Assembly: GCA_048213135.1 (NCBI GenBank)
Contig: PS015183.1
Location: 21,608-60,661, forward strand
Source: Reclinomonas americana ATCC 50394
Taxonomy: Eukaryota
Length of the DNA stretch: 39,054 nucleotides
Direction of reading: 5' to 3'
Shown here: piece after piece, positions 9,686-38,800 of the stretch
How the letters are laid out: each line of letters starts with the position of its first letter
Position numbering within the stretch: position 1 is the first letter of the stretch
Made by a program: the position numbers and the translations under genes
The notes under the pieces: model-generated
Databases searched by the model: none
What the model saw: the letters and a program-made list of their open reading frames with translations, nothing else
What the model was told of the DNA's origin: nothing

Positions 9686-12600
9686 TCACGTGCCTGTGTG
9701 GAAACCGAGCACAAGTTGGAGCAGACAGAATGCTGGCACTGCCGACGATTCCGCCCCGCCAGCAGAGCTTCTACTGGTGATGATTTCACAACATGGCACC
9801 ATGGCAACCGCGCCATCCAAGACGGATTCCAACTCTGCGCATTCGGCACCGACAGTGAGGGAGAGTGCGACAATGCCGCGGGGGAAAAGACAGCACGCAC
9901 CACTGACAAGCTGCTGCGGCGACGGTGATTGCGCAAAGCCGTGTACGACAGTGGGAATCCACGCTCGAGCCACCGAGACCTGCTGCATTACAGATGGTTG
10001 AGATAAACCGCAAGTTGGTGCCCGGGGATGACAACAACACCTACCTCGCACACCGCATCCTCCAGTCCACAAGCCACAGCACACTGTCTGACTGCTTGTG
10101 TGGCTGCTCGGCCGACACTATGCAACGTGCACGAGCCACTGCCACTGGCATCAGCTGCGTTGCACACGAGTGAGTTCGTGAGCGGAAGGGCCACGATTGA
10201 GCCGTGTATGACGCACCAAACATCAAGTGCGCAAACGCCATTCGCCGATCTTCCGCCTCCACCACAACGGCTCGCCATGACACCGATACGCCGTCCACTG
10301 TGATTCCAATCTCAACTCAGTTCATGGTACACATGAGGAACACTCGTTGAGGAAAGAACCTGTCGCAGCATCATGCACGACCGAGTCGACGACAAAGCGC
10401 GATGCCAGCGGACACACCTCCACTTGCGCACCGCGTGGCAGTGCATGGACACGAATAACATCACGCACACACTGCACGGACAAGAAAAAGGACGAATTGT
10501 GAGACACTATAATCATCTGCGTGTATAGATGTCACGAAACTGCATCGTCGTTGGTGGAACCCCACAAGTCGGCATGATCGTCGTCGCCAACCACACACAC
10601 CACAGCCGAGTGAACACCGGAATCCACATGCACGCCAAACACCTGCAGCACCGACTCCACGTGTTGCCAACACAGAGACGCTCCACTGCTCGACGCCAAT
10701 GTCATGGAGCCCGGATCCAGTGCGATTTGGCCGGCCGGGAACAGAATGCCATTGCACTGCAATCAGAGTTATCAGAGCAGCGCTCCGAGATCCTCCACAC
10801 CGTGTCCATCACCACACCACGCAACATCCACACACTGACTGTACGGTCCGATGCACGCCGGCGCCCACGCGGAGATACTTTGCACGTGCAGTGCGCGTCG
10901 CGCCACTTGACGGCTGTCCACCACCACCAACTCCATGTGCAACGTGTAGTCGCCATCCACACCCTGTATGCACACACTTGGGGGAGGAGGATCAATGAGG
11001 GAGGTCAGCGCATCAGTCAGTGCGGGTCGGGGGCACACACCGTGACGGAGGATTGTGCAAGCCCACGTGTCGACGGTACTCGGCGTTGACGGCGCCAAAG
11101 GATTGCATGTCGGCCAGCACCAGCATGCAATGCACCGCATCGGTCATTCCGAGACCATGCTGCTCGAGAGTCTCTGCATACATGCATGCGCGAGTGAGAC
11201 GCAGTCTCTCAACGCAGCAGCATGAGCGTGAAGCATCAGCACCTCGAACTGTGCGAAACGCCTGTGCAACCGCCCCGGAAGCACCATCGTGACCGTGTCG
11301 CACCGACACAACCACATGGCACACTGGTCCTCGTTGACGCACTCGGATACTTACGCCTGATTGCAGAGATTCGTCGCTGGCATCGCTCGCTGGCGGGCTT
11401 GCCGAGGAGTTGTTGGCCTCCACCGCCTCCTCCACCTCCACGACATCATCGACCTCGGTCACCGTGCCATCCACGTGGCCAGCCTGTGCGCCCTCCTCTT
11501 TTTCTTCGGTGTGGTAGCGCACAATCCGCATGTAGCTGACGGGTGCCCACTCGTCCGTGCAGTGCACCTTCACCTCGGCCTCATCACTGCACGCACGATC
11601 ATCAGCAGCGCTCACAGCAGAGCACGGCGTTCACTCCTGCGCAACATGACGATCCGCCGACGAAAGAGTGGCGAATCGAGCGTCAGAGTCTCATACTCAC
11701 CGCCTTCGCCACACACGTGCAAGCCGATTTGTCGGTTCTGTTCTCCACTGCTCTGGTGAGTTCATGCTCTCTCCCTCTTCCTCCACCACCTGCCCATGCA
11801 TACATACCAGTTCATGAAACTGCGGCTGCAGCTCCGCAATCGTCTTGCCGAGATGACGATCCGGATGCAATCCGGCCGCCGCCGTCTTCACCAGCACCGC
11901 CGTCAGCGGCGCATCGATCATACCCTGCAACAGTGCCGTCTGATCGCGACGCCACAGGTACGCCAGCGACACCAGTCCCAATCGTGCGCATCTGTGAGGC
12001 TCACGAGTGAACACCTGCAACAGCAAGAGAGAGGGGGAAGAGAGATAGAGAATCACAAACGCAACACATTCTCCACGCGCAGTCGCTGATAGTCGGAGAG
12101 AATGGCACCAGAGGACACCGCCTCGACCTCAGGCATGCGTCGCTGCAACAGAGACTTCATGTCATCAAAGCAAGCACGGATGTGTCTCGGAAAAAACCTC
12201 CCAGCTCCACCTTGACAAAGCGCAGCAGTCTCATGAGATCCTCGGTCTCGTCGCCGGCCGTCGGCGTGGACGAGTACGGCAGCGAGGTGTCGCGTGCATC
12301 ACCGCGAATGGTCCCGCAAAAGAGCGGCAATCCAGTGCACTCGGCAAAGGCGCGGACCACGTCCACGGCCACTGTTTGGTACATCCAGCTGTCGAGCTCC
12401 TCTGAGGGTGAATGAGGGAGAAGGACGTGAGGAGAAGGTGGGAGGAGGGAGAATGGACGAATGAGAAGGAGTAAGGAGAGGAGGGAAGGAGAAGGACGAG
12501 AGGAGAAGGGGGGAGAGAAGAGAAGGACGAGAGGAGAAGGGGGGAGCGAGGAGAAGGGGGGAGCGAGGAGGAGGGGAGAGGGAGGGAGAAGGGAGAGAAG

Positions 12601-12696
12601 GTGAGTGAGTGTGGAGTACAGGCAGACAGGCATAATGAGAGAGAGAGAAAAGCATGAAGGAGGGAGAGAAAGAGGACTGTGTGTGACCGTGTGTGC

Positions 12697-12767
<71 letters not shown>

Positions 12768-13755
12768 NNNNNNNNNNNNNNNNNNNNNNNNNNNNNNNNN
12801 NNNNNNNNNNNNNNNNNNNNNNNNNNNNNNNNNNNNNNNNNNNNNNNNNNNNNNNNNNNNNNNNNNNNNNNNNNNNNNNNNNNNNNNNNNNNNNNNNNNN
12901 NNNNNNNNNNNNNNNNNNNNNNNNNNNNNNNNNNNNNNNNNNNNNNNNNNNNNNNNNNNNNNNNNNNNNNNNNNNNNNNNNNNNNNNNNNNNNNNNNNNN
13001 NNNNNNNNNNNNNNNNNNNNNNNNNNNNNNNNNNNNNNNNNNNNNNNNNNNNNNNNNNNNNNNNNNNNNNNNNNNNNNNNNNNNNNNNNNNNNNNNNNNN
13101 NNNNNNNNNNNNNNNNNNNNNNNNNNNNNNNNNNNNNNNNNNNNNNNNNNNNNNNNNNNNNNNNNNNNNNNNNNNNNNNNNNNNNNNNNNNNNNNNNNNN
13201 NNNNNNNNNNNNNNNNNNNNNNNNNNNNNNNNNNNNNNNNNNNNNNNNNNNNNNNNNNNNNNNNNNNNNNNNNNNNNNNNNNNNNNNNNNNNNNNNNNNN
13301 NNNNNNNNNNNNNNNNNNNNNNNNNNNNNNNNNNNNNNNNNNNNNNNNNNNNNNNNNNNNNNNNNNNNNNNNNNNNNNNNNNNNNNNNNNNNNNNNNNNN
13401 NNNNNNNNNNNNNNNNNNNNNNNNNNNNNNNNNNNNNNNNNNNNNNNNNNNNNNNNNNNNNNNNNNNNNNNNNNNNNNNNNNNNNNNNNNNNNNNNNNNN
13501 NNNNNNNNNNNNNNNNNNNNNNNNNNNNNNNNNNNNNNNNNNNNNNNNNNNNNNNNNNNNNNNNNNNNNNNNNNNNNNNNNNNNNNNNNNNNNNNNNNNN
13601 NNNNNNNNNNNNNNNNNNNNNNNNNNNNNNNNNNNNNNNNNNNNNNNNNNNNNNNNNNNNNNNNNNNNNNNNNNNNNNNNNNNNNNNNNNNNNNNNNNNN
13701 NNNNNNNNNNNNNNNNNNNNNNNNNNNNNNNNNNNNNNNNCGCAATCACTTTCAT
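9686..13755 (-). CDS. DPH6: Diphthine--ammonia ligase with C-terminal RidA/YjgF-like domains, multi-exon, interrupted by an N-gap
   Basis: MKVIA start at 13755 runs into the gap. Downstream motifs: ELDSWMYQTV, GDETEDL, VSSGAILSDYQRLRVENVCARLGLVSLAYLWRRDQ, HVCGEGGEYETLTLDSPLF. RidA-type segments: NAEYRRHVGLHNPPSR, LHVQSISAWAPACIGPYSQ, AGQIALDP. The last exons chain to TGA at 9686-9688. Confidence 0.92.
12701..12766. repeat. (GT)n microsatellite, preceded by a purine-rich tract from ~12412, in a DPH6 intron
   Basis: Perfect GT run of about 33 units abutting an N-gap. Confidence 0.95.
12768..13740. other. Assembly gap (others at 15289-15990, 30850-30934, 31859-32639, 37069-37641)
   Basis: Runs of N, mostly next to microsatellites. 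Confidence 1.
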
Positions 13756-13860
13756 CACAAAATCACAATCACAAACAAGACAGTGAGACAAATAAAGACA
13801 AATGACATCACCAAAACACCCTTTCCTTACGTTTTTGTGTTGAGTGCTGAGAGAGTAAGG
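13756..13860. promoter_or_regulatory. Putative bidirectional promoter between DPH6 and LRRC6
   Basis: 105 bp, comparatively AT-rich, between two divergent ATGs (13755 on minus, 13861 on plus). Confidence 0.6.
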
Positions 13861-16255
13861 ATGGTGCGTATTACAGAGGAGATGCTGCGCAAGCGGTCGG
13901 AGCACAATGAGGTGAGTTGTGTGTGTGAAAGAGGGCGGGAAAAGGAAAGAGGCGGGTGATCGTTGTTGACTGACAACTCTCTCTCTCTCAACAGGGTCAA
14001 CTGAGTACTCTGGAGGAGGTGTGTCTTGTGTGTGAGTGTAAGGAGATTGTGCAGATGCTCACACGCAGCTTGCACAGATCACGTTGCATCAGTTCGACAT
14101 TGGTTGGTGATGATCTTCTCTCTCCTCTCCTCTACTCTCTCTTTGTCTCTCTCTCTCCTTCTCTCTTTCCTTCTCACTTCTTTCCTCTCTCCTTCTCTCT
14201 TCTCTCTTCTCTCCTCTCCCCTTCTCTCCTCTTCTCTGTTCTCTCCTGTCTCTCTCTTCTCTCCTTCTCCCTTCTCTCCTGTCTCTCTCTCTTCTCCTTC
14301 TCACTTCTCCACATCACAGAGCGCATTGAGCTGCTGGGCGACTACTGCCGCAAGCTGCGCATTGTGTATCTGCAGAACAATCTCATTCCCAAGATCGAGA
14401 ACCTGCACCACCTGAAAGAGCTGCGATACCTCAACTTGGCCATCAACAACGTGTCGCGCATCGAAGGCCTCGAGCAGAACGAGGCACTGGAGAAGTTGGA
14501 TCTCACGGTGAACTTTGTCGACGATCTGCTCAGCATTGAGTCGCTGCGCGGCAACTACAATCTGCGCGAGATCTACTTGACGGGCAATCCGTGCACGCAG
14601 TACGAGGGCTACCGGGAGTTTGTGATCAATGCGCTGCCGCAGCTGACGGTATGGTCTTTGTGTGCTTGTTTGTGTCTGCGCGGCTCGGATGTTCACCTCG
14701 CGGTGCAGTGGCTCGATGGGCAGGAGATCACGCGTGGTGAGCGGCTGCTGGCCGCACAGAGGCGCGAGGAGGTGCGGGCACGGATTGTGGAGCAGCAGGC
14801 GGTGGCGATTGCGGAGAATCAGGAGAAGGAGCGGCAGGCGGCGGAGAAGATCCGCAAGCAGCGCGAGGACGATGAGGCGCGCATCCAGCGACAACTCGAG
14901 CAGCAGAGGGCGGCCGCTGGCGAGGGTGAAGGTGTGTGTGTGTGTGTGTGCATGTGAGAAAGAGAAAGAGTGGATTGGGCGTCGAGGGATTCATGTGGTG
15001 ATGTGCACAGGATCGTCAAGTGGGGCGGCGCCTGCGGAACCAGTGGAAACCGATCCGTGGGCACTGGCCGTCGACGCCAGCAAGGAACACACGTACGGTC
15101 ACTCGCGAACGGAGCGTGTGGCCATCTACAGCGAGATTGAGGAGCTGCGACAAAAGGCTGGTGCGTCGCGCACTGTGGATCCGAATGGACTGACGGAGAC
15201 TGAGCGAGTTGCGTGATTGTGCCTTCTTTTCTTGTTGTTGCTGTGTGCTGACCCAGTGGATGCACAGGCGGGCAAGGCACCGAAACGTNNNNNNNNNNNN
15301 NNNNNNNNNNNNNNNNNNNNNNNNNNNNNNNNNNNNNNNNNNNNNNNNNNNNNNNNNNNNNNNNNNNNNNNNNNNNNNNNNNNNNNNNNNNNNNNNNNNN
15401 NNNNNNNNNNNNNNNNNNNNNNNNNNNNNNNNNNNNNNNNNNNNNNNNNNNNNNNNNNNNNNNNNNNNNNNNNNNNNNNNNNNNNNNNNNNNNNNNNNNN
15501 NNNNNNNNNNNNNNNNNNNNNNNNNNNNNNNNNNNNNNNNNNNNNNNNNNNNNNNNNNNNNNNNNNNNNNNNNNNNNNNNNNNNNNNNNNNNNNNNNNNN
15601 NNNNNNNNNNNNNNNNNNNNNNNNNNNNNNNNNNNNNNNNNNNNNNNNNNNNNNNNNNNNNNNNNNNNNNNNNNNNNNNNNNNNNNNNNNNNNNNNNNNN
15701 NNNNNNNNNNNNNNNNNNNNNNNNNNNNNNNNNNNNNNNNNNNNNNNNNNNNNNNNNNNNNNNNNNNNNNNNNNNNNNNNNNNNNNNNNNNNNNNNNNNN
15801 NNNNNNNNNNNNNNNNNNNNNNNNNNNNNNNNNNNNNNNNNNNNNNNNNNNNNNNNNNNNNNNNNNNNNNNNNNNNNNNNNNNNNNNNNNNNNNNNNNNN
15901 NNNNNNNNNNNNNNNNNNNNNNNNNNNNNNNNNNNNNNNNNNNNNNNNNNNNNNNNNNNNNNNNNNNNNNNNNNNNNNNNNNNNNNNNNNTCGCCAGTGG
16001 CAGAAGCAAATGGAGGCCGACATGGAGGAGACGGGTGACGGCCCTTATCTCTCTGACGAGGAGGGCGCCGATGATGACGATGATGTGGATGCAGAGAAGA
16101 GGTCAACTGGGGAATCCGCAGCCGCCGCCGCCTCTGCACCTCCACCACCCAAGCCACGAGAGAGTGTGGACTATCGCACAATCGTACGCGGTGGCAGCGG
16201 ATCAGTGGCGGCGTCAACACCCGCGATGCAAGAGCGCGAGACTCGACGACTATAA
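13861..16255 (+). CDS. LRRC6: Dynein axonemal assembly factor 11 (LRRC6/tilB/Seahorse), multi-exon, interrupted by an N-gap
   Basis: Spliced N-terminus MVRITEEMLRKRSEHNE|GQLSTLEE|ITLHQFDI|ERIELLGDYCRKLRIVYLQNNLIPKIENL. LRRs include YLNLAINNV and EKLDLTVNFV, followed by the LRR cap LTGNPCTQYEGYREFVINALPQL|WLDGQEI. The 3' end after the gap is less certain. Confidence 0.92.
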
Positions 16256-19602: not shown

Positions 19603-19736
19603 TGTCACCCTCAAACGCGCTCACTCTCTCTCTCTCTCTCGCTCACTTCAAGTGCGTGTGACAATACAAAAAGAATGCGCGATGCTCGCGCGCGCGTAAC
19701 TGTCTACTCGCATTCACTGTCCTCCATAAGAGTCAC

Positions 19737-21324
19737 TCACTTTTCTTCTGGTCGCACAACGACGGCCGGAGTCTGCTGCCGCGCTGGTGGATGCGCGCGT
19801 GTCGACGGTGGCGAGATGATATCCCACATGTTGGCCCATATGGAACCGCGGTCGTAGAAATTGCGAACTTCCACCTCGTTCCACACTCGTTCCAGTTCCT
19901 CTTCGGTGACGGTCTCGTCGTTGAGGTTGATTGCGGCCGCTGATTGAGAGCCGGCTCCACGTTGCTTGATGTGGCCGCTGGAAGAGGCGGGATTGGACGG
20001 GGTGCAACCGGGCGGCTCCTTGGCACCGCGCTTCGACTTGTCCTTTTTCTGTTGCTTGGCAGTCGACGTCTTCTTGTCGTCGACAATGCCGCCGGCGAGA
20101 CGCAGCTGCCTCCGGCGACGGTAGTAATCGGCGGTGGAGTGAATGTCTTGCCACTTGAATGACTCGGCGGTGGTCATGTTGCGCGACATGAGGTACTTTG
20201 CAGAAATGGAGAAGTGAGCAACAAATGGTTGCATGCACGTTGCCACCACGAAGACGCACCAGGTGGTACACAGTGAACCACAACAGGAACCCGACAAACA
20301 CCGCGGAGAGGATGAAGAGGAACACCAGTGCCGAGTAGTAGCTCATCAGGTACTGAGCGGGAAAGCATGAGCGAGAAGCGTGCGCAGGGGTGAGCACGAG
20401 CTGCACACCTGCAGAATGGTCCAGTGCGTGGGCCAGTACATCTCCTCGGTCTCATACACCACAAACTGGCGGTTGTACAGATCCTGCGAGGTGACAATGT
20501 GCAGCGCGGTGGCCAGCGCCGTGTACATGCCGTACGACACCATGGCGAGGTTGACAAAGAGGAACGCCATAAAGTGGCGATAGTTGAGCTCGCCAATGTC
20601 GGTGTTGAGCCACACACAGTGGTGATCCATGCGCTGCGACACGCGCGTGTGAGCGGTGGAGAGAGACACAACAAACAAAGGAAGAGTTGTCTGCCACACG
20701 CAACTGCAACACACTGATTGCACACGGAGCAGTGCTTGGAGCGCGCGGGTCGCTCAAACTTGCACGTGCCACACGTCTTCTCCACGTACAACAGCTGATC
20801 GAGCTCATATGCTGCCGCGTACTTGGCCACATTCCGCTTGGTGATCACTCCCGGGTCGGCAAACGAGGCCCACACAAACATGGCCAGTGACGCGCCAACA
20901 ACCACCATACCACCATACCTTCACGAGAGAGAGACACACACACAGGGTGAGCGTCTTGCTTGCCTGTGTGTATGTGTGTGGCGACTCACTGATGCGCCTC
21001 TGAGAGGTACTCGTGTGGCAACTCGGCGGCGACTGTGTCCTCGAAAAAGTAGAGGCCCGTGAGCAGCAGCAGCACGTAGAGGATCTGCACGAGTGGGTTG
21101 GGCGTGCGAGTCACGTAGTGCTGCAGGCGGTGCCAGAGAGTGCGCGGTGGGGCATCGTCGCCTGTGACTTGTGATCGGCGTGTGCAGTCGAGCTTTTGCA
21201 GGAGGGCTTCGCGGGTGCGGCCGACCCAGGTGTTCTGCAGAGCGGGTGTGTTGCCGCAGCCGCAGACGAGGAGGAGGAAGCCGCCGGTGGCGGTGTAGAG
21301 GGTGAGGATGATGGCGGGCCACAT
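19737..21324 (-). CDS. DHHC protein S-acyltransferase (SWF1/ZDHHC4-like), multi-exon
   Basis: DPG motif (FADPGVIT); cysteine-rich domain CGTCKFERPARSKHCSVCNQCV..MDHHCVWLNTDIGELNYRHF; TTxE motif (NMTTAESFKW); NFYDRG..AN motif; several hydrophobic TM segments. Start at ATG 21324 (MWPAIIL). Confidence 0.93.
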
Positions 21325-21396: not shown

Positions 21397-24300
21397 ATGG
21401 CGTTGCTGACAGACGAGGAGTTGCGTATGAGCTCACACCTCCTACTTCTCCACACTCCTCTCACTTGCGCTGTGCCCCAGATCGAACTACGTGCGCGCCA
21501 TGAAAGTTATGCACGGCGTGGCTGCTCGTGCGCTGCGTGCACTGGTGGACCAAGAGCTGCCTGTGTTTGTGCGACGATGCGCGGAGGAGACGGAGGCGTC
21601 GGGAGCGGGGAAGGTGGAGTTGATGAGAGAGTGGATGAAGAAGCAGGTCACCAAACGAGATGCGCGGTGTGTCTTGTCTGACTTCCGCTCTTCTCCTTGG
21701 CCTCCATGCTGATGCCGGGCGTCGCACAGCACTGCGCCAGCGGGATCAGACCGTGAGCGAGTGTTGTGCTATGACTCGTCGTGTGCTGCCATGGACGAGT
21801 GGCAGCGTGCGTTTGACGCTGGCGAGCCAGCTCCCTCGTGCCAGGCGTTTGACATTACGTGGCTCACGTCGGTGTTGCTGAACGCACGCTGGGCGCTGCG
21901 GGTGGACGCCGCTGCGCACGAGGTACGACATCTGATCTCCGACGCAGCGCAGGTGTGCGGATAAGTGCATGCTTTCCTCCCTCTCTCTCTCTCTCATCCC
22001 TCGCTGCAGCGCGAGGCGATCGGCGGCCTGCGTGAGTTGCGCAATGAGCTCATGCACACAACAAACATGCGGCTCTCTGCAGAGAGACTGCTCCAACTAC
22101 TGGGAGACGAGGGCAAGGATGGACAAGTCGCTGTGCTGTTGCAACAAGCTGGCGTTCCGCAGCTGGACAACTTCTTGCGAGAGATTGATGCCATTCGTCG
22201 CGGTGCGTGTGAGCAACAGCGTGCATGCATGTGTGTGACGAGAGCGATGCTCATCACTATTGTTTGTTGTTGCCTCACTTGCAGCCGCGGAGCCGGTGGG
22301 TAACCCACTCACCTTCTGCAACGTGGGTCAGCTGGAAGGGTTCCCGTTTCCCAGTCGTGTAGTCGAGGCCGAGCGACTCGCCGAGCGACTGCTGGAGTGT
22401 GATGCTGGTGAATAGATGTGGTTTTTCGTTTCCTCATTCTCTCTCTCGCACTCATCCGCCCTTTCCATCTCTTCCCTCGTAGGTGACACACCCGGAATCA
22501 TTGTGCTCTCTGGTGAAGGAGGAAGCGGGAAGACCACACTGGCGGAGCTAGTGGTGTCGGAGATGGAGCGTAGGAAGTGGCGCGGCTCGGCTATGTACTC
22601 AGATATGCGCGGTCACACTGCCGATGCTCGTCACTTCACGTCGGTGAGTGAGGAATGAGTGGATTTTTGTGTGCAATAGGTGTGTTGTTAATCGTGGTGA
22701 TGCAGACAATGGAGGTGCTCGGGAACGGACTGCGGGGATTCGCGCACGCCATGATGCCGGTGCAGTCGAATGCACAGCTGCTGGCCCAGATTGATGCGTG
22801 GGAGCGGAGCGAAGATGTGGATGCGCTGCGCAGCCGTTTTAGTGACTTGATGCATGACAGTCACGGCGTGCTGTTGCTTGACAATGTCGGCAGTGGAGAC
22901 CAAGTGCTGGCAGTTCTGCGAGCGGCAGGCGCGCGCAGTCGAGTTCGTTCAGGTGTGTGCGTGTATGGGTGAGCTGAGTAGATCTTCCACTGGCTCACTA
23001 TCGCGTCTGCTGAGTACAGGCATGACCGCACCAATGACAATCGTGACCACTCGATTCAGTCGAGTAGCAGAGCAGCTGAAGCAATCGCCGCTGCTGAGCT
23101 CGTTGACGGTGTTGCATGTGGCCGTGGGTGATGTGGAACTGGAGGATGTGGCCAAGTATGTGCGTCAGCAAATCGATGCACCGGAGGAGATCTGTGATGA
23201 GGTCACACAAGCGACGGTAGCGAAGCCGCAGGCATTTCGTGTTGCCATGTGTATGAGGTACGCTCTCGCGCATAGCGCTTCTCTCACCGCTTAACGAGTG
23301 ACTGGGGGATGGCACACGCAGTATGCTTGGACGTGAGTCGCTGGAAACACTTGCTGGTGATGAGTTGCATGGACGACTGGCCGCGACTCGAGCGCTCGCA
23401 CTGGAGGAGCTAATGAGCAAGAATTTGGCGGAGTGTTCGCCGCTGATGCGACGTGTGCTGGTGCTGGTGGCGGCTTTGCAGCAGATGCGCGTGCATGCCA
23501 CTAGTCGTATGGTGTCACTGCTGATTCGGGAGATCGGTTTTGGCGAAGCTTCTTCGACCGTCCAGTTGACGGAAGAGGTTGCTGGCGGAGGCAGTAGGGA
23601 GGACGATATGCATGACGAGAGAGTTCTAGAAGCATTGGAGCGGCTTCGTCGGTCAATGATGTTGCAGGCCAGGGTGTCACATTCGTGTGATGCGCTGTGC
23701 CAAATGATTCCCGGTGGTGACTTTGCGGGCTCGCCCTCGAGGGTGGAGTACGGAGTTCACGACCTCGTGATGGAGTGGCTCGTTACGGAAGAGCGAGAGG
23801 GTGAGCTCCTCGAGTGGAGAGATGTTGTCTCTACCATGGTGCTGAGTGGTCTAACTCGCTTCGCTAACAGCGAGATTAGCGACGCGGCACTTGCCGACAT
23901 TCGTCCATGTTTGCAAGTGTTGTGGAGTATTTTGTTGCCAATTATGACACGTACATGGATTTGCGGCACAGTGCCAGTTGAGGTGCTTGAATTGTGGCTC
24001 GATGGTGTGCGTGTGCTTACTCAACTTGTGGAGAGACGACTTCCAGTCGGCGAGTTTGAACCAGCGGTGGCGGTGGAATGTGCTGGGTGGCTGCGCACAC
24101 AATCCATTGACGAAGGCGATCGGAGTTTGCTGCACGTGAGGGCACTTTGTGTGGCAGGATTGTTGATAAGCGCGCGTCGCGACAGTCACGCGGCCGAGTA
24201 TTTGGAGGGGTATCTGACGACAATCAACCCCACGGATGATGTAGAAATGGTAGCAGTAATCCGACTTCAGTATGCAGACTGTCTGCAGAGAACGGGCAGA

Positions 24301-25614
24301 TTTACCGAAGCAGAGCAAGCGTTTCGGGCGGAGTTGGCGTCAACGAGGGAGGTGCTTGGTGACACGCATCACTACACGCGCGTTTCCATAAACAATCTTG
24401 CGCTGTGCATCCAGGCAAACGGTAAACTCTCCGAGGCTGAACGGTTGTTTCTAGAGGTGCTGGCACTTAGTCGTGAGGTGTATGGTGACAGGCATCCAGA
24501 CACGCTGTTGACCATGAACAATCTCGCCTCGTGCATTCAGGCGAGTGGCAATCTCGCCAAAGCTGAGCGGCTGTATCGGGAGGTGCTGGAGCTGCAGCGT
24601 GAGGTGCTTGGGGCATTGCATCCAGACACACTGTTGTCCATGAACAATCTCGCCTTGTGCATCCATAAGAGCGGCAATCTCTCCGAAGCCGAGCGACTGC
24701 ATCGAGAGGTGTTGGCGTTGAAGCGCGAGGTGCATGGCGACAAGCACCCAGACACGCTTGCGTGCATGAACAATCTCGCCATGTGTATCCAGGAGAGTGG
24801 GAACCTCGCTGAGGCCGAGCGACTGCATCGGGAGGTGTTGGCGTTGCAGCGTGAGGTGCTTGGTGACCGACATGCAGACACGCTGAGGTTTGTGAACAAT
24901 CTCGCCGTGTGCATCCAGGAGAGTGGGAACCTCGCTGAGGCCGAGCGACTATACCGGGAGGTGTTGGCGTTGCAGCGTGAAGTGCTTGGTGAAAGGCATC
25001 CACTCACGCTGCTGTCCATGAACAATCTCGCCATGTGCATCAAGGACAGCGGCAATCTCGCCGAAGCCGAGCGACTTCATCGAGAGGTGTTGGCGTTGCA
25101 GCGAGAGGTGCTGGGTGACAGGCATCCAGATACGCTGACGTCCATGAACAATCTCGCCTTGTGCATTCAGGCGAGCGGCAATCTCGTCGAAGCCGAGCGA
25201 TTGCATCGGGAGTTATTCACGTTGATGCGTGAGGTGCACGGTGACAGACATCCACTCACGCTAGCGTCCATGAACAATCTCGCCATGTGCATTCAGGCGA
25301 GCGGCAATCTCGTCGAAGCCGAGCGATTGCTTCGGGAGGTGTTGGCGTTGCAGCGTGAGGTGCTTGGCGACAGGCATCCACACACGCTGATGACCATGAA
25401 CAATCTCGCCTTGTGCATCAATGAGAGTGGGGACCTCGCCGAAGCCGAGCGACTTTATCGGGAGGTGTTGGCGTTGCGGCGTGAAGTGCTTGGTGACGCG
25501 CACCCAGGCACACAGGTGTCGGTCAATAATCTTCGCACAATTGAGCAACAGCAGCGAGCTCGAGTGTCACAAGGGTGCTCTCTTACACGTACCCGCACGT
25601 GCGTTTTCCTGTAA
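21397..25614 (+). CDS. NLR-like protein copy 1: HEPN - NB-ARC/STAND ATPase - helical/winged helix - ~10 x 42-aa TPR - CaaX
   Basis: Predicted exons include 21397-21419, 21481-21666, 21730-21952, 22010-22202 and a last exon 23322-25614. Translation: MALLTDEESNYVRAMKVMHGVAARALR...QAFDITWLTSVLLN...LRELRNELMH. Walker A GEGGSGKTT (22512-22538), Walker B GVLLLDNV, TIVTTR, GVHDLV. TPR consensus MNNLAxCIxxSGNLxEAERLxREVLALxREVLGDRHPDTLxS. C-terminus CVFL. Confidence 0.9.
24262..25530 (+). repeat. Coding tandem array of ~10 x 126-bp TPR units
   Basis: atgaacaatctcgcc recurs at a 126-bp period (e.g. 24514, 24640, 24766, 25018, 25144, 25270, 25396). Confidence 0.95.
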
Positions 25615-25872
25615 GTTTGGCCCAGTGAATAACTCTATCGCTCTGAAGCGCTGCTGTATATATAATGTACACTTGCAAGCTTGACTTTACGTGAAGTGTT
25701 TGTTTAGTATATTTCCCAAGTCCATAATCATTAACGCATTCTGCACAGCTGGCGTGCTATCAACAAGCAGACAAGCAGACCAGGAGCGTCTTGTCCTGCT
25801 GGCTTGTTTTTCAGCAAATCTGGCGCTGCGTAGTCAGACGGACAGCTGCTGTCAACTTGATAGAATTCGCTC

Positions 25873-28800
25873 ATGGCGCTGCTGACAGACGAGGAGTTGT
25901 GTATTACACACCACCTCCTTCTCCACATACCACCTCCTCTCACATGCCTTGTGCCACAGATCGAACTACGTGCGCGCCATGAAAGCCGTGCGTGGCGTGA
26001 CTGCTCGTGCGCTGCGTGCGCTGGTGGACCAAGAGCTGCCTGTGTTTGTGCGGCAATGTGCGGAGGAGACGGAGGCGTCGGGGGCGGGGAAGGTGGAGTT
26101 GATGAGAGAGTGGAAGCAGAAGCAGGTCAACAAACGAGATGCACGGTGTGTGTCTTGTCCAACTTCCACTCTTCTCCTTGGCCTCCATGCTGATGCCGGG
26201 TGTCCCCACAGTACTGCGCCTGTGGGATCAGACCGCGAGCGAGTGTTGTGTTTTGACTCGTCGTGTGCTGCCATGGACGAGTGGCAGCGAGCGTTGGATG
26301 CCGGCGAGCCTGCTCCCTCGTGCCAGGCGTTTGACATTACGTGGCTCACGTCGGTGTTGCTGAACGCACGCTGGGCGCTGACGGCGGACGCCGCTGCGTC
26401 CGAGGTGCGCCATCTGATTTCCGACGCAGTGCAGGTGTGCGGATGAATGCATGCTTTCCTCTCTCTCTTCTGCCTTCTCGTTCTCATCTCTCTCGGTGCA
26501 GCGCGAGGCGATCAGTGGACTGCGTGAGTTGCGCAACGAGCTCATGCATGGTGCAGACATGCGGCTCTCCGCAGAAGGACTGCGCCAGCTATTGGGAGAC
26601 GAAAGCAAAGATGGACAAGTCGCTGTGCTGCTGCAACAAGCCGGCGTTCCGCAGCTGGACACCTTCTTGCGAGAGATTGATGCCATTCGTCGCGGTGCGT
26701 GTGAGCAATAGCGTGCATGCATGTGTGTGAAGAGAGCGACGCTCATCAGTAGAGGTTGTTGTTTCTGATACGCAGCTGCGGCGCCTGTCGGCAACCCAAT
26801 CACCTTCTGCAACGTGGGTCAGCTGGACGGATTCCCATTTCCCAGTCGTGTTGCCGAGGCCGAACGACTCGCCGAGCGACTGTTGGAGTGTGATGCTGGT
26901 GGGCAGATGTGGGTTCCCTTTTCCTCATTCTCTCTCTCGCACTCATTCACTCTCTTTCTCCCTCACAGGTGACACACCCGGAATCATTGTGCTCTCTGGC
27001 GAAGGAGGAAGTGGCAAGACCACACTGGCGGAGTTGGTGGTGTCGGAGATGGAGCGCAGGAAGTGGCGCGGCTCGGCGCTGTACTCGGATATGCGCGGTC
27101 ACACTGCCGATGCTCGTCACTTCACGTCGGTGAGTGAGGAATGAGTGATTTTGTGTGCAATTGTGGTGTTGATCGTGATGATGCAGACGACGGAGGTGCT
27201 CGGGAACGGACTTCGCGGGTTTGCGCATGCCATGATGCCAGTGCAGTCCGATGCACAGCTGCTGTCTCAGATTGATGCGTGGGAGCGGAGCGAGGATGTG
27301 GAGGCACTGCGCAGTCGTTTGAGTGACTTGATGAATGACAGTCACGGTGTGTTGTTGCTTGACAATGTCGGCAACGGAGACCAAGTGCTGGCAGTTCTGC
27401 GGGCGGCAGGCGCGCGCAGTCGAGTTCGTTCAGGTGTGTGCATGGTGGATGAGCTGAGTAGATCACCCTGTGGCTCACTACCGCGTCTGCTGCGAGCAGG
27501 CATGACAGCACCAATGACAATCGTGACAACTCGATTCAGTCGAGTAGCCGAGCAGCTGAAGCAATCGCCGCTGCTGAGCTCGGTGGCAGTGGTGCACGTG
27601 GACGTGGATGATGTGGACAGGGAGGACGTGGCCGAGGCCGAGCGACTGTATCGGGAGGCGTTGGAATCGAAGCGTGCGGTACTTGGTGACAGACACCCAG
27701 ATGCGCTGGCGTCCATGAGCAATCTCGCCAGCTGCCTCAAGGCAAGCGGCAATCTTACCGAAGCTGAGCGACTGTTCGGAGAGGTGCTAGCGCTGAGGCG
27801 TGAGGTGCTAGGCGAGAAGCACCCAGACACGCTGGCATCAATGAGCAATCTTGCCAACTGTATGCTGGCGAGCGGCGTTGTTACCGAAGCTGAGCAACTG
27901 CATCGGCAGGTGCTCGCATTGAGGCGCGAGGTACTTGGTGACAGGCATCCGTCTACGCTGGCATCCATGAGCGATCTCGCCGTCTGCATGCAGGCGAGCG
28001 GCGATCTCTCGGAAGCCGGGCGACTGTATCGAGAGGTGCTGGCACTGAGGCGTGCGGTTCTGGGAGACAGGCATTCGGACTCGCTGTCTTCCATGAGCAA
28101 TCTCGCCAGTTGTCTGTTGGCAAGCGGCAACCCGACTGAAGCCGAACAGTTGTATCGCGAAGTGTTGACGTTGAGGCGTGACAAGCTCGGCGACAGGCAT
28201 CCGGACACGCTGACTTCTATGAGCAGTCTCGCCAGCTGCATGCAAGCGAGCGGCAGATTTGCTGAAGCCAAGCAACTTTATCAAGAGGTTGTGGTGCTGA
28301 GGCGCGAGGTTCTCGGTGCCAGAGATCCCGACACGCTGACATCGATGAGCAACGTTGCCACTTGTGTCCACGCCAGTGGCAATCTTGTCGACGCCGAGCG
28401 ACTGTACCGGGAGGTGCTGGAACTGAGGAGGGAGGTGCTTGGTGTCAGGCATCCACGCACAGTGTCGTCCACGTACGATCTCGCCATCTGCATCGAGGCC
28501 AGCGGCAACCTCACTGAAGCAGAGCGACTGTATCGTGAGGTGTTGGCATGGAGGACAGAGGTGCTGGGTGCCACTCGGCCAGACACGTTGACTGTCATGA
28601 GTGATCTTGCCCGGTGCACGCAGACGAGCGGCAATCTCGTCGAAGCCGAGCGCCTCTTCCACGAGGTGTTGGTGCTGCGACGGGAGGTGTTTGGTGAAAA
28701 GCACCCCGACACGCTTGCGTCCATGAACAATCTTGCCTTGTGCATCCGGGCCAGCGGCAATCTCTCCGAAGCCGAGCAACTGCATCGAGAGGTGCTGGCG

Positions 28801-30057
28801 CTGAGGAGAGAAGTGCTTGGCGAGAGACACCCAGACACGCTGGCGTCCATGAACGATCTCGCCAACTACATGCAGGCGAGCGGTATCGTCACCGATGCAG
28901 AGCGTCTGCATCGGGAGTTGCTGGCGCTGAGACGCGAAGTGCTCGGCGACAGGCACCCCGACACGCTGTTGTCCATGAGCGACCTCGCCAGCTGCATGCA
29001 GGCGACTGGCGACCTCGCCGAGGCCGAGCGACTGCACCGAGAGGTGTTGGCGTTGAGGCGTGAGGTGCTTGGCGACAGGCATCCGAGCACGTTGACGTCC
29101 ATGGCCAGTGTCGCCAAGTGTATGCAGGCGAGTGGCAATCTTGCCGAGGCCGAGCGACTGTTTCGAGAGGTGTTGGCACCGAGACGCGAGGTTCTCGGTG
29201 ACAGGCACCCCGACACGCTCGCGTCCATGAACAGTCTTGCCAACTGCCTGCAGGAGAGCGGCAACCTCGTCGAAGCCGAGCAGTGGCTTCGGGAGGTGTT
29301 GGCGTTGCGACGGAGCTCACTTGGCGACAGAAACCCGGACACGCTTACATCTGTGAGCAGTGTCGCCACGTGCGTGCAGGCGAGCGGCAATCTCACCGAA
29401 GCCGAGCGATTGCACCGGGAGGTGTTGGCGTTGAGGTGCGAGGTTCTTGGTGGCAGGCATCCGCACACGCTACTGTCGATGGCCAGTCTCGCCAGGTGCT
29501 TACAGGTCGGCGGCAATCTTGCCGAAGCCGAGCGACTGTATTGGGAGGTGTTGGCATTGCAGCGTCAAGTGTTTGGTGACAGGCACCCACTCACGGTGTC
29601 GTCCTTGAGCAACCTCGCCACGTGTGTTCAGGCCAACGGCAACGTCTTCGAAGCCGAGCGGCTGTACTGGGACGCGTTGACGTTGCAGCGGCAGTTGCTT
29701 GGTGACAGGCACGCTGACACGCTGTCGACCATGAACAATATCGCCAACTGCATGCAAGCGAGCGGCAATCTGGAGGAGGCCGAGCGACTGTATCGGGAGG
29801 TGTTGGCGTGGCGGCGGGAGATGCTTGGTGACCGACACCCAGCGACGCTGTCGACCATGAACAGCCTCGCCAGTTGTCTGCAAGAGAGCGGCAATCTCGC
29901 CGAAGCCGAACGACTGTATCGCGAGGTGCTGGCGCTGCAACGTGAGATGCACGGCGACACGCACCCAGACACACAGCAGGCGCTGCACAACTTGCGTGCA
30001 GTTGAGCGACAGCAGCGCAGCGCACAGCGATGCTTGCGCAAGTGCGTTCTCCTCTGA
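25873..30057 (+). CDS. NLR-like protein copy 2: HEPN - truncated NB-ARC (P-loop domain only) - ~18.5 x 42-aa TPR - CaaX
   Basis: Same exon/intron layout as copy 1 from ATG 25873 to ~27633. RNELMH at 26532-26549, GEGGSGKTT from 26998, then LLLDNV and TIVTTR. The sequence then passes directly into TPRs (EDVA/EAERLY). Last exon 27500-30057. C-terminus CVLL. Confidence 0.9.
27631..29990 (+). repeat. Coding tandem array of 18 full plus one half 126-bp TPR units
   Basis: The 42-aa unit MSxLAxCxQASGNLxEAERLYREVLALRREVLGDRHPDTLxS was counted in the ORF 27145-30057 translation. Confidence 0.95.
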
Positions 30058-30223
30058 TCGGAAAATATTAATGTTAAGCCAGTGAATTACGAGACGCGAT
30101 CGCCTTTCTCTCGTAGGTTGCTGTTTGGCATGCTTCGATATCTTTTCCCTTTGCAAGCAAATCAGACACATTAACTTCGATGCTTGTTCGGAGCGCTAAA
30201 CTCCGCACAGTTTCTCTCGGGCA

Positions 30224-35698
<5,475 letters not shown>

Positions 35699-35838
35699 AA
35701 GCTGAACTCTACAATTAGTGCCACCTCTGCTATTTACCAGCTGCTGTATAATATATTCGGCGTAAATAAAGCGGTACACTTTGCGACAGCACTCAAATGT
35801 CCGTCTCTGCTTTCGCTCGAGCATCAACAGGGCAAGCA

Positions 35839-38800
35839 TTACCGACCGAGATCCGACAAGTCGATTCTGAACTGCTTGGTGGCGGCACCCGCGCTCTTCT
35901 GACGGCGGTTCTTGAACACGGAGCCATCTTGCAGTTCGCGGACCATCGAGTCCATAATGCCCTTCTCCGGTGCTGCTGGTGCCGCCGCCGACGCCGCCGC
36001 AGTGGACGAGCTGCCAGCTGCTGGCGACACGGGCGAGGCGGCCACACGCGAGGCCACGCCGCCACCACCGCCAATGGCCACTGCGCAGCAAGTGACACAA
36101 GCAAAAAAATGAGACCAAGACATGCGCATGGATCAGCAAGACAAATATCGAACCGACAGACGCCGCTGCCGCCGCTGACTGAGCCATGGACTGGCGCTGT
36201 GCGGCCTCGCGCCTGGCAGCCTGCTCCTCTGCCTTCTTCCGGCGCTCCTCCACCTTGCGCAGCTCGGTGATGGACACTTCAAAGTCCCTGAGGAAAGACT
36301 CCATGTTCTTGAAGAAGCTCTCCGGATCAAACTTCTTTGGCTCCTCGCCAAAGAACACGGCCAACTTCTCCAGGTCGTCCTGCAGCGTCGTAAAGTCGCT
36401 GCTGACAGACTCCCACTCGCGATGATGCTCGTCGAGGAACGCCTGGTGGGGGGAGGGGAGGGGAGAACAGTAAGACAACCGAACGACAGTGACTTGTGAG
36501 TGCCTGGTCGACAAACCTGCATGACGCCCTGGAACCTGTCGCCAGCACCGGCGGCCTGTTGAATCTGGTCCTGGATCAATTTCATCGACTTGCTGACGGC
36601 GGCAATGTCGTCGCGCAGCGCGGGCATGTTCACTGCGGTGCAAGGGTGAGACCGGAGAGAGGGCGAAGGGAAGGGAAGGGAGGTGAAGAGAGAAGATGGA
36701 GAAGGATGACGGGCACGAGCGACAAAGAAGAGGGCTGAAACGAAGAGAGTGACGCGGAAGGGAAGACGGAGGGAAGGAGGAGCGAGAAGGAGGAGTGGAG
36801 AGAAACAGGGAGGAAAAGAGAAGGCAAGAGTGACACTACCGAGAAGGAAGAGAGGAGAGAAAGGAGGTGAGGATAGCAGCAGCAAGATGTTCGGGGGAAG
36901 GAAGAGAGACGAATGAAAGCAGAAGATAGCGAGAGACATGGAGAGGACGCAAAGATGGATGCGTCACACTGCGAGTTTGAAAAGTTGTGTGCGTGTGTGT
37001 GTGAAAGGGAGAGAGAGAGAGGAGGGAGAGAGAGAGAGAGAGAGAAGAAAGCATCGTGCGCATACTCCNNNNNNNNNNNNNNNNNNNNNNNNNNNNNNNN
37101 NNNNNNNNNNNNNNNNNNNNNNNNNNNNNNNNNNNNNNNNNNNNNNNNNNNNNNNNNNNNNNNNNNNNNNNNNNNNNNNNNNNNNNNNNNNNNNNNNNNN
37201 NNNNNNNNNNNNNNNNNNNNNNNNNNNNNNNNNNNNNNNNNNNNNNNNNNNNNNNNNNNNNNNNNNNNNNNNNNNNNNNNNNNNNNNNNNNNNNNNNNNN
37301 NNNNNNNNNNNNNNNNNNNNNNNNNNNNNNNNNNNNNNNNNNNNNNNNNNNNNNNNNNNNNNNNNNNNNNNNNNNNNNNNNNNNNNNNNNNNNNNNNNNN
37401 NNNNNNNNNNNNNNNNNNNNNNNNNNNNNNNNNNNNNNNNNNNNNNNNNNNNNNNNNNNNNNNNNNNNNNNNNNNNNNNNNNNNNNNNNNNNNNNNNNNN
37501 NNNNNNNNNNNNNNNNNNNNNNNNNNNNNNNNNNNNNNNNNNNNNNNNNNNNNNNNNNNNNNNNNNNNNNNNNNNNNNNNNNNNNNNNNNNNNNNNNNNN
37601 NNNNNNNNNNNNNNNNNNNNNNNNNNNNNNNNNNNNNNNNNAGAGAGAGAAAAGCATCTGCGCATATCCTTCGATCTGTACCTCGGCTGGCGTCGGGAAT
37701 GTGCGCCAGATCGGCACGCAGATCCATCAAGTCGGGATACTTGGTCTGGCACAGACGCACAATGTACATCAGCAGCGTCATGCCCTCAGCTCCGCGCGTC
37801 TCCTTCAGCTTGCCGAGCGACTCGAGTCGGAAACCGTACGCATTGCCACGGAATCCGCCGCCGTTCATGTAGTTGCCAATGGCCAACACGATCTCCAGCA
37901 GACGCGTCAGCTTGGTGCTCTTGCGCAACTCTTGCGCGGCAAAGGTGACATTGCTCAATTGCTGTGTGCACGAGCACGGATGAGAACTGAGAACAAGAAG
38001 TGCACGAATTATGAACACACGCGTACCGGCACAATGTCGTCCACCAGTGCGCGGTACTTGTATGAGAACAGCCAGCACTTCATGCGCGCCTCGAGACGCG
38101 GCACCGTACCGATCTGATGGCAAGGCACACACATCAGCACTCAACATGCACCTCATTTTCGTCCTCTCGCACACACACTCGCGCGAGACGCAACGACGCG
38201 AACAAACTGCTCCGCACGACCGAGCTCGCCCTGACCATCCCAGCTGCCGACCAACTCGACCTGTCACCGCCACACCACGATGAGTGAGCACGAGCAGATG
38301 CACGGCAGAAGCGGTGCGGCACACAAACCTCTTCGGCTGTTGGCGCAATGTTGATCAGCGCTTGCACGTGACGCTCTGTCAGCACATCGCGGTTCATCTG
38401 GATGATGGCCTGCCGGAGATCCTCAAGCGGAATCTTCGCAAACGTGGAACCGAGCACAATGCCTGCGCGACAAATCGACATAGTGCGTAAGCACAAGCAC
38501 ACACACGCCACTAAACAGGGACGTCGCTCTCAACTCATGTTCTGGTTGCGCTTGCCCTCCAGCAACGACACAATCGCCGGGCGACTCGACGACGCCGACG
38601 CAGCGGCTGCCGAGGCGGCTGGTGCGGATTCCACAGCTGAGAACATGGACTCGAGCGAGTCTGTGTCGAGGTCGACCGACGACAGGTTCTCCACAATCTT
38701 GCTCTCCGTCCAAATCGAGCCTGCGACCTTGATCGGCTGCACCTTGTCCCACTGCACGCCCTTCAGTTTGGTCTTCGGAGCGTACTTGGGGAGTGGTGGC

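Follow-up and report, generated by a model that had tools for sequence, protein, structure and literature searches.

We focus here on a tandem pair of genes in a 39,054-nucleotide stretch of genomic DNA from Reclinomonas americana ATCC 50394 (assembly GCA_048213135.1, contig PS015183.1, positions 21,608 to 60,661 of the forward strand), which over its whole length is referred to below as the window and in whose numbering all coordinates are given. Both genes, copy 1 (21500..25614) and copy 2 (25979..30057), lie on the + strand, are split into several exons and encode a STAND ATPase followed by TPR repeats. An initial annotation of this DNA had stated that the two NLR-like reading frames end in a CaaX prenylation box (Cys, a1, a2, X) with Leu in the last position, or CaaL, and translation bears this out, the frames closing with ...CVFL-TAA in copy 1 and ...CVLL-TGA in copy 2.

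Gene models of the two copies

The start of each gene is counted at an internal ATG. Copy 2 comprises exons 25979-26145, 26212-26434, 26502-26694, 26776-26898, 26969-27129 and 27187-30057, and its spliced coding sequence of 3738 nt specifies 1245 residues with 0 internal stops; its 5 introns measure 57–81 nt, each bounded by GT..AG with a G at position −1 of the donor. Copy 1 comprises exons 21500-21666, 21730-21952, 22010-22202, 22285-22407, 22483-22643, 22706-23257 and 23322-25614, of which exons 1–5 (21500-22643) were mapped from copy 2 and show equal lengths, 88.6–94.4% identity, conserved GT..AG boundaries and no stops. An alternative genetic code that would lengthen the frames is ruled out, copy 2 having no in-frame TAA, TAG or TGA in its 1245 codons. 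Between the copy 1 stop and the first ATG of copy 2 (25874) lie 260 nt, which leaves scant space for an extra copy 1 exon. A tblastn search with spliced copy 2 as query found no third paralogue in the window beyond the two genes.

Over 374 codons of the 5′ exons, non-synonymous divergence (dN) between the copies is 0.046 and synonymous divergence (dS) 0.274, giving a dN/dS of 0.17, and in these 5′ regions the exons are 89–94% identical and the introns 76–88%. The clean 1245-residue frame of copy 2, the low dN/dS and the greater likeness of exons than of introns together point to copies that are, or until recently were, working genes.

The C-terminal tails

In copy 1, translation of 23323-25614 gives an open frame of 763 residues that ends in ...RARVSQGCSLTRTRTCVFL and is followed by TAA, the last exon closing with ...GCSLTRTRTCVFL-TAA; in copy 2, translation of 27145-30057 gives an open frame that ends in ...RQQRSAQRCLRKCVLL and is followed by TGA, the last exon closing with ...QRCLRKCVLL-TGA. 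The box and stop of copy 1 occupy 25600..25614 on the + strand (TGC GTT TTC CTG TAA) and those of copy 2 occupy 30043..30057, also on the + strand (TGC GTT CTC CTC TGA), so that the Cys stands at exactly the fourth residue from the C-terminus in both. A second Cys codon, TGC in each copy, lies further upstream on the same strand, at 25576..25578 in copy 1 (8 residues before the CaaX Cys) and at 30031..30033 in copy 2 (4 residues before it), and these two codons align with one another. Within 8 residues of the CaaX Cys, copy 1 has two Arg and copy 2 has Lys-Arg and one further Arg. The annotation had described an upstream Cys and basic residues in both tails; the Cys stands, being aligned and encoded by an identical codon, and the basic residues, 2–3 in number within that distance, hold weakly.

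The tails owe their difference in length to two frame-preserving gaps, one of 2 codons (6 nt) and one of 4 codons (12 nt). In the copy 1/copy 2 alignment, the stretch from the last TPR to the box spans 27 columns, of which 11 have non-synonymous changes, 6 are gapped, 5 have synonymous changes and 5 are identical. The earlier description of tails that differ in length, sequence and stop codon while keeping C-V-a-L is accurate in this respect. Among the 388 stop-to-stop frames of at least 60 residues on both strands of the window, 25 have a Cys at position −4, and copies 1 and 2 are the only ones that end in Cys, two aliphatic or aromatic residues and Leu. Among the 120 best TPR_12-rich database hits, a Cys at −4 occurs in 3 (CICM, CLGD and CAIN) and a CaaL ending in 0. 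The share of proteins that are prenylated is reported to be about 1–2% (PMC11152559).

Divergence between the copies and apparent constraint on the box

The two tails are homologous, so that the boxes count as one origin and not two. The force that the annotation drew from differing tails with a shared box is for this reason only partly justified: their independence was overstated, and what stands is that the box was kept at high synonymous divergence. Over the 69 alignable codons nearest the box on its 5′ side, dN is 0.26 and dS 0.86, and the 150-nt 3′ untranslated regions (3′UTRs) are 52.0% identical, against 51.3 ± 2.0% (maximum 56.4%) in 200 shuffles. With dS at this value and the 3′UTRs at the level of shuffled sequence, neutral similarity has been erased at the 3′ end, and the tails are old. 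The copies nonetheless agree at 10 of 12 nucleotides in the CaaX box, both have the stop in the same place after it, the upstream Cys is retained, and neither the 6-nt nor the 12-nt indel shifts the frame; among the adjacent tail residues identity is ~48%. This retention is suggestive of selection on the box, though not decisive.

Two further observations concern the same comparison. First, divergence along the genes is mosaic, dS being 0.27 in the 5′ exons (21500-23000 and 25979-27441) and 0.86 in the last TPR and tail, with random identity in the 3′UTR; this pattern is compatible with the 5′ halves having been gene-converted, or with older paralogues having recombined. Second, the otherwise unalignable 3′UTRs share a 13–14-nt element, GCCAGTGAAT[A/T]AC, at 25625-25640 and 30078-30093, 10–25 nt past the stops, which may be a 3′-end processing signal.

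The tails as a putative geranylgeranylation signal

Geranylgeranyltransferase-I (GGTase-I) prefers a hydrophobic a2 and L, F, I, M or V at X (PMC11304957). With a2 being Phe in copy 1 or Leu in copy 2, and X being Leu in both, the tails conform to this rule. The CVLL of copy 2 has direct counterparts: yeast Rho1 natively ends in CVLL and is geranylgeranylated, and its Cys-to-Ser form is non-functional (PMC11304957); human GBP-5 also ends in CVLL and is geranylgeranylated; and green fluorescent protein (GFP) carrying CVLL behind a four-glycine linker is directed to Golgi membranes, an effect abolished by a GGTase inhibitor (PMC2998424). For the CVFL of copy 1, the nearest precedent of the C-x-F-L type is the CSFL of G-gamma-5, which is geranylgeranylated and is not cleaved by Rce1 (PMC11304957); by analogy, CVFL may be modified and left untrimmed. 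The proposal in the annotation that C-V-a-L is a GGTase-I-type signal is in agreement with these data. When the end of copy 1 is modelled by AlphaFold2 (AF2) from its single sequence, the last 10 residues have a mean predicted local distance difference test (pLDDT) score of 47, and the box of this copy is probably accessible. For the intact proteins, geranylgeranylation is predicted from the tails with confidence that is evenly divided.

Upstream domains and their defects

The domain order of copy 1 is an N-terminal domain, a P-loop ATPase, a helical region of ~390 residues, ~10 TPR units and the tail. Three ATPase motifs, Walker A GEGGSGKTT, a Walker B-like LLLDNV and TIVTTR, follow one another in order on the upstream exons, and the Walker A of copy 2 (26998..27024, + strand) aligns with the P-loop of proteins labelled NB-ARC. 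An hhalign comparison against NB-ARC regions taken from 9 proteins with that Pfam label gave a probability of 92.4% (E 5.1e-7) over 142 columns, with all three motifs aligned; the Pfam family NB-ARC (PF00931), searched on single exons, gave no match at E up to 1, and a custom NB-ARC hidden Markov model (HMM) matched the P-loop alone, at 10.2 bits. On these alignments the ATPase is an NB-ARC-like STAND domain and not a proven member of PF00931. In the last exons Pfam recognizes only TPR_12 and TPR_10, with TPR_12 at E 1.6e-110 in copy 1 and 9.6e-194 in copy 2, where the array (27631..29985, + strand) is built of 42-residue units and covered by 17–19 Pfam stretches.

The N-terminal domain contains the motif R-N-E-L-M-H on the + strand, at 26532..26549 in copy 2 and at ~22040-22057 in copy 1, which is of the form Rx4H with Asn after the Arg. 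Rx4-6H with a polar residue after the Arg is given as a signature of HEPN RNases in PMC3710099. Pfam, again searched on single exons, reports DUF4559 at E 0.0091 and 16 bits, under the 27-bit cut-off, and the Atlas feature scores are 0.83 for DUF4559, 0.81 for HEPN_DZIP3 and 0.78 for HEPN_Swt1, all under 0.9, below which such a score is a lead only. The N-terminal domain may, on this evidence, be a HEPN-type RNase effector.

Both copies depart from the expected architecture, in ways that the annotation had missed. In the ATPase exon of copy 1 there is a +1 frameshift relative to copy 2 (22961..22972, + strand), seen when the exons are aligned as one gap of 1 nt, the extra base being in copy 1; the upstream frame stops after 88 codons, at TGA 22970-22972, and homology resumes in the +1 frame. 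The 2.3-kb frame downstream remains wholly open, which suggests either very recent pseudogenization or an error of the draft assembly. In copy 2, the ATPase passes straight into the TPRs ~25 residues past the TTR motif (27560-27640, corresponding to 23100-24330 in copy 1), so that the ~390-residue helical region sited between ATPase and TPRs in copy 1, where NB-ARC ATPases would have a helical or winged-helix (ARC) module, is missing; the last exon of copy 1 encodes 335 residues of this region, and their Atlas features are TPR-like only. The copy 2 junction falls at ...EDVA/EAERLY... (the slash marking the junction), and the word AEAERL also occurs upstream of the P-loop, a hint that repeat-like words of this kind may have recombined. 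With copy 1 frameshifted and copy 2 lacking this region, neither is a textbook intact NLR, and the label NLR-like given to the proteins in the annotation applies only in part to the genes as assembled.

Neighbouring genes and the window

Head-to-head with copy 1, on the − strand at 19714..20908, lies a gene of at least 2 exons for a DHHC-type palmitoyltransferase (protein S-acyltransferase). Pfam PF01529 matches one of its exons at E 1.2e-6 and 29.1 bits, against a cut-off of 28.7, and D-H-H-C-V-W-L-N is found in the next exon. An S-acyltransferase gene adjoining genes for proteins with a CaaX box and an upstream Cys is a suggestive neighbour, but its closeness may be due to chance. Further upstream, a TPR-containing gene on the + strand (6231-8854) has an apparent end of ...EIRRCVM-stop (8830-8860), in which the Cys-Val codons lie on G/GTGCGTG. 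The site probably marks a splice donor rather than the end of the protein, since the hexamer is the same as that of the intron 3 donor of the STAND genes and has a G at −1.

The window as a whole is eukaryotic in character, with a GC content of ~0.6, five runs of N, many microsatellites and short GT..AG introns with pyrimidine-rich ends. Long stretches of low GC (12000-16000, 30250-33000 and 36000-38000) consist of N-runs and the microsatellites (CTCA)n, (GA)n and (CA)n, a mark of draft assembly. A fragment of a formin FH2 domain is found at 35399-36643 on the − strand (Pfam E 3.3e-7, under the cut-off).

Searches for relatives

A homologue search with the whole of P0001 returned 2447 hits from 8000 candidates, dominated by bacterial and fungal TPR_12 arrays, the best being 53% identical over 56% of the query. 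The 335-residue non-TPR region of copy 1 found no homologue in a sequence search, and HMMER returned 0 hits for it from 1.84 billion cluster representatives. A search with the final 50 residues of copy 2 yielded 10 hits (E up to 10) among 49 candidates; these belong to the TPR or kinase-TPR class, those with a name being bacterial, and none has a Cys at −4. Two metagenome scans gave pattern matches and no relative, and in a phmmer search of the spliced N-terminal 430 residues against 122 proteins only the window's own P0002 matched. Members of the family outside the window were thus found in none of the sequence, HMM or metagenome searches.

Among the database hits, P0041, a protein of 1175 residues with HET, NB-ARC and TPR Pfam domains, ends in ...NKCYCICM, a CaaX box of the farnesyl type. 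We considered this fungal HET-NB-ARC-TPR protein as a precedent and rejected it as probable chance, the similar P0019 ending without a Cys box.

Weighing the explanations

The motif, its conservation between the copies and the domain order are plain from the DNA, and we hold with moderate confidence that the tail is a genuine GGTase-I signal, kept by selection, on a STAND receptor that is predicted to be tethered to a membrane. Several points weigh against this. First of all, there are only two sequences, and with homologous tails they amount to effectively one lineage. Second, the keeping of three of the four box residues is only mildly improbable under neutrality, at ~0.02–0.1 by our estimate. 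Third, the basic patch is weak in both tails, with 2–3 basic residues up to 8 residues away. Fourth, in the single-sequence AF2 model the tail of copy 2 is helical to residue 229 of 230 with pLDDT >90, and a helix running to the penultimate residue makes the box less accessible than it would be in a floppy tail. Fifth, copy 1 as assembled is frameshifted and stops prematurely in the ATPase exon, and copy 2 is without the ~390-residue helical region. Finally, a GTGCGT hexamer, which TGC GT makes together with the final base of the codon before it, overlaps the Cys-Val codons in both copies, a point that the annotation had also missed.

In a rival reading, the CaaL ending would be an inherited leftover without a role in lipidation, having arisen once and persisted in a cytosolic protein through ordinary coding constraint or because too little time has passed for it to decay. 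We regard this as possible, though unlikely. The homology of the tails is in keeping with it, as is the conservation of about half of the neighbouring tail residues, which makes the three kept residues not strongly significant; the frameshift of copy 1 and the loss of a core region in copy 2 suggest relaxed function, the modelled continuous helix of the copy 2 tail is consistent with a box that is not used, and CaaX ends do occur by chance, as shown by CICM, present in 1 of 120 unrelated TPR proteins and absent from its close relative. Against it, a dS of 0.86 and a fully randomized 3′UTR show a long divergence, through which both copies held on to the box, the place of the stop, the Cys upstream and an unbroken frame over two indels. 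Both downstream frames are still fully open, over 2.3 kb in copy 1 and 2.9 kb in copy 2. Furthermore, a tetrapeptide identical to that of proven substrates normally suffices for GGTase-I (PMC2998424).

A different mature C-terminus would result if the GTGCGT over the Cys-Val codons were used as a 5′ splice site, or if the 3′ end were processed in some other way. The hexamer is indeed the true donor of intron 3 in copy 1 and in copy 2, acceptor-like GCACAG sequences lie 150 and 169 nt downstream in the two 3′ regions, and the apparent RRCVM-stop end of the upstream TPR gene on G/GTGCGTG indicates that, in this genome, codons for Cys-Val can look like donors. Yet a G stands at −1 in all 11 of the mapped donors (5 in copy 2 and 6 in copy 1), whereas the bases in that position at the boxes are C and A; the introns mapped here measure 57–82 nt and not 150–169 nt; splicing at these sites would append peptides with no relation to each other in the two copies, one of them entering a microsatellite; and the sequence is conserved as coding sequence up to the stop and is random beyond it. 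Splicing at the box is accordingly improbable.

It is similarly doubtful that the cysteines serve S-acylation alone (possibly by the neighbouring DHHC enzyme), metal binding, a disulphide or a protein contact where the TPR solenoid ends, with no prenylation: two cysteines are conserved in the tail, the immediate divergent neighbour is a DHHC palmitoyltransferase gene, and animal NLRs, NOD1/2 and NLRP3 among them, carry S-acyl groups and are not known to be prenylated, but such roles leave unexplained why each copy places its Cys precisely at −4 and why a1, a2 and X stay hydrophobic with a final Leu, and S-acylation of soluble proteins usually requires an earlier membrane signal, as in Ras-type proteins.

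Comparison with known systems

A geranylgeranylated tail on these proteins would have partial parallels in several systems. First, GBPs are large cytosolic nucleotide-switch immune proteins that reach membranes through a C-terminal CaaX box, the CVLL of GBP-5 being the same as that of copy 2 (PMC2998424). They differ from copies 1 and 2 in being dynamin-family GTPases with a helical stalk, not STAND ATPases, in having no TPR sensor and in showing no sequence relationship. Second, the tails resemble those of Rho and Ras proteins in their CaaL box, their basic residues and a nearby Cys for a possible second lipid, the CVLL of Rho1 being required (PMC11304957). Unlike those of Rho and Ras, however, they end the TPR solenoid of a protein of >1200 residues, and their basic patch is far weaker than the K-Ras or Rac type. 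Third, fungal and bacterial NB-ARC-TPR STAND proteins (fungal NLR-like, AfsR-type and kinase- or CHAT-TPR) share with both copies the succession of Walker A, Walker B and TTR followed by TPR_10/TPR_12; the CaaL box of copies 1 and 2 sets them apart, as none of the 120 best TPR hits has one. With regard to the N-terminal part, bacterial proteins combine HEPN, a STAND ATPase and TPRs, and in animals and Capsaspora a DZIP3-type HEPN is fused to TPR or NACHT (PMC3710099); the domain order HEPN-STAND-TPR therefore has a precedent.

Finally, a number of STAND and NLR proteins require a covalent lipid to reach the membrane at which they work, as would be the case here. Plant CC-NLRs are N-acylated, NOD1/2 and NLRP3 are S-palmitoylated and nephrocystin-3 is N-myristoylated, and the known membrane routes of NLRs are N-terminal or internal acyl groups; copies 1 and 2, on the other hand, would carry a putative C-terminal isoprenoid at the sensor end. 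The annotation had been unaware of C-terminally prenylated NLR or STAND receptors, and full-text literature searches likewise turned up no description of a prenylated NLR, NB-ARC, NACHT or STAND protein. It is plausible that the CaaL-tailed copies are akin both to lipid-anchored STAND/NLR proteins and to CaaX-anchored immune switches such as the GBPs, their lipidation being predicted.

A model for the two proteins and its implications

In our proposal, the two genes are tandem paralogues of a lineage-specific STAND family whose members would consist of a possible HEPN-type RNase, an NB-ARC-like ATPase, 42-residue TPRs of the kinesin-light-chain type and a CaaL tail. The terminal Cys would receive a C20 isoprenoid, after which CVLL would be trimmed and methylated and CVFL possibly left untrimmed, and the conserved upstream Cys might be S-acylated as a second signal. 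We infer from this that the protein would reside on the cytoplasmic face of a membrane, tethered via the end of its TPRs, which would act as the sensor; the plasma membrane or phagosome proposed in the annotation is, as the target, a pure guess. A ligand-driven switch of the ATPase would then free the N-terminal effector, the activity of which is likewise predicted, at the membrane. Taken as a whole, the picture of lineage-specific, membrane-patrolling STAND receptors that are geranylgeranyl-anchored and perhaps also palmitoylated, with the fast-evolving TPR sensor end tethered and the HEPN-type RNase free, that are functionally convergent with GBPs and perhaps draw their second lipid from the adjacent DHHC enzyme, is tentative and less likely than the prenylation signal itself.

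For an NLR-type switch, the location in the cell decides what can be sensed. If the proposal is correct, a C-terminal isoprenoid would set the way in which the receptor faces the membrane, sensor down and effector out, and STAND immunity in a protist would be tied to lipid-anchored surveillance of the kind known for GBPs. Should the same signal recur in unrelated protist STAND families, it would point to a way of organizing innate immunity that is general and has been overlooked.

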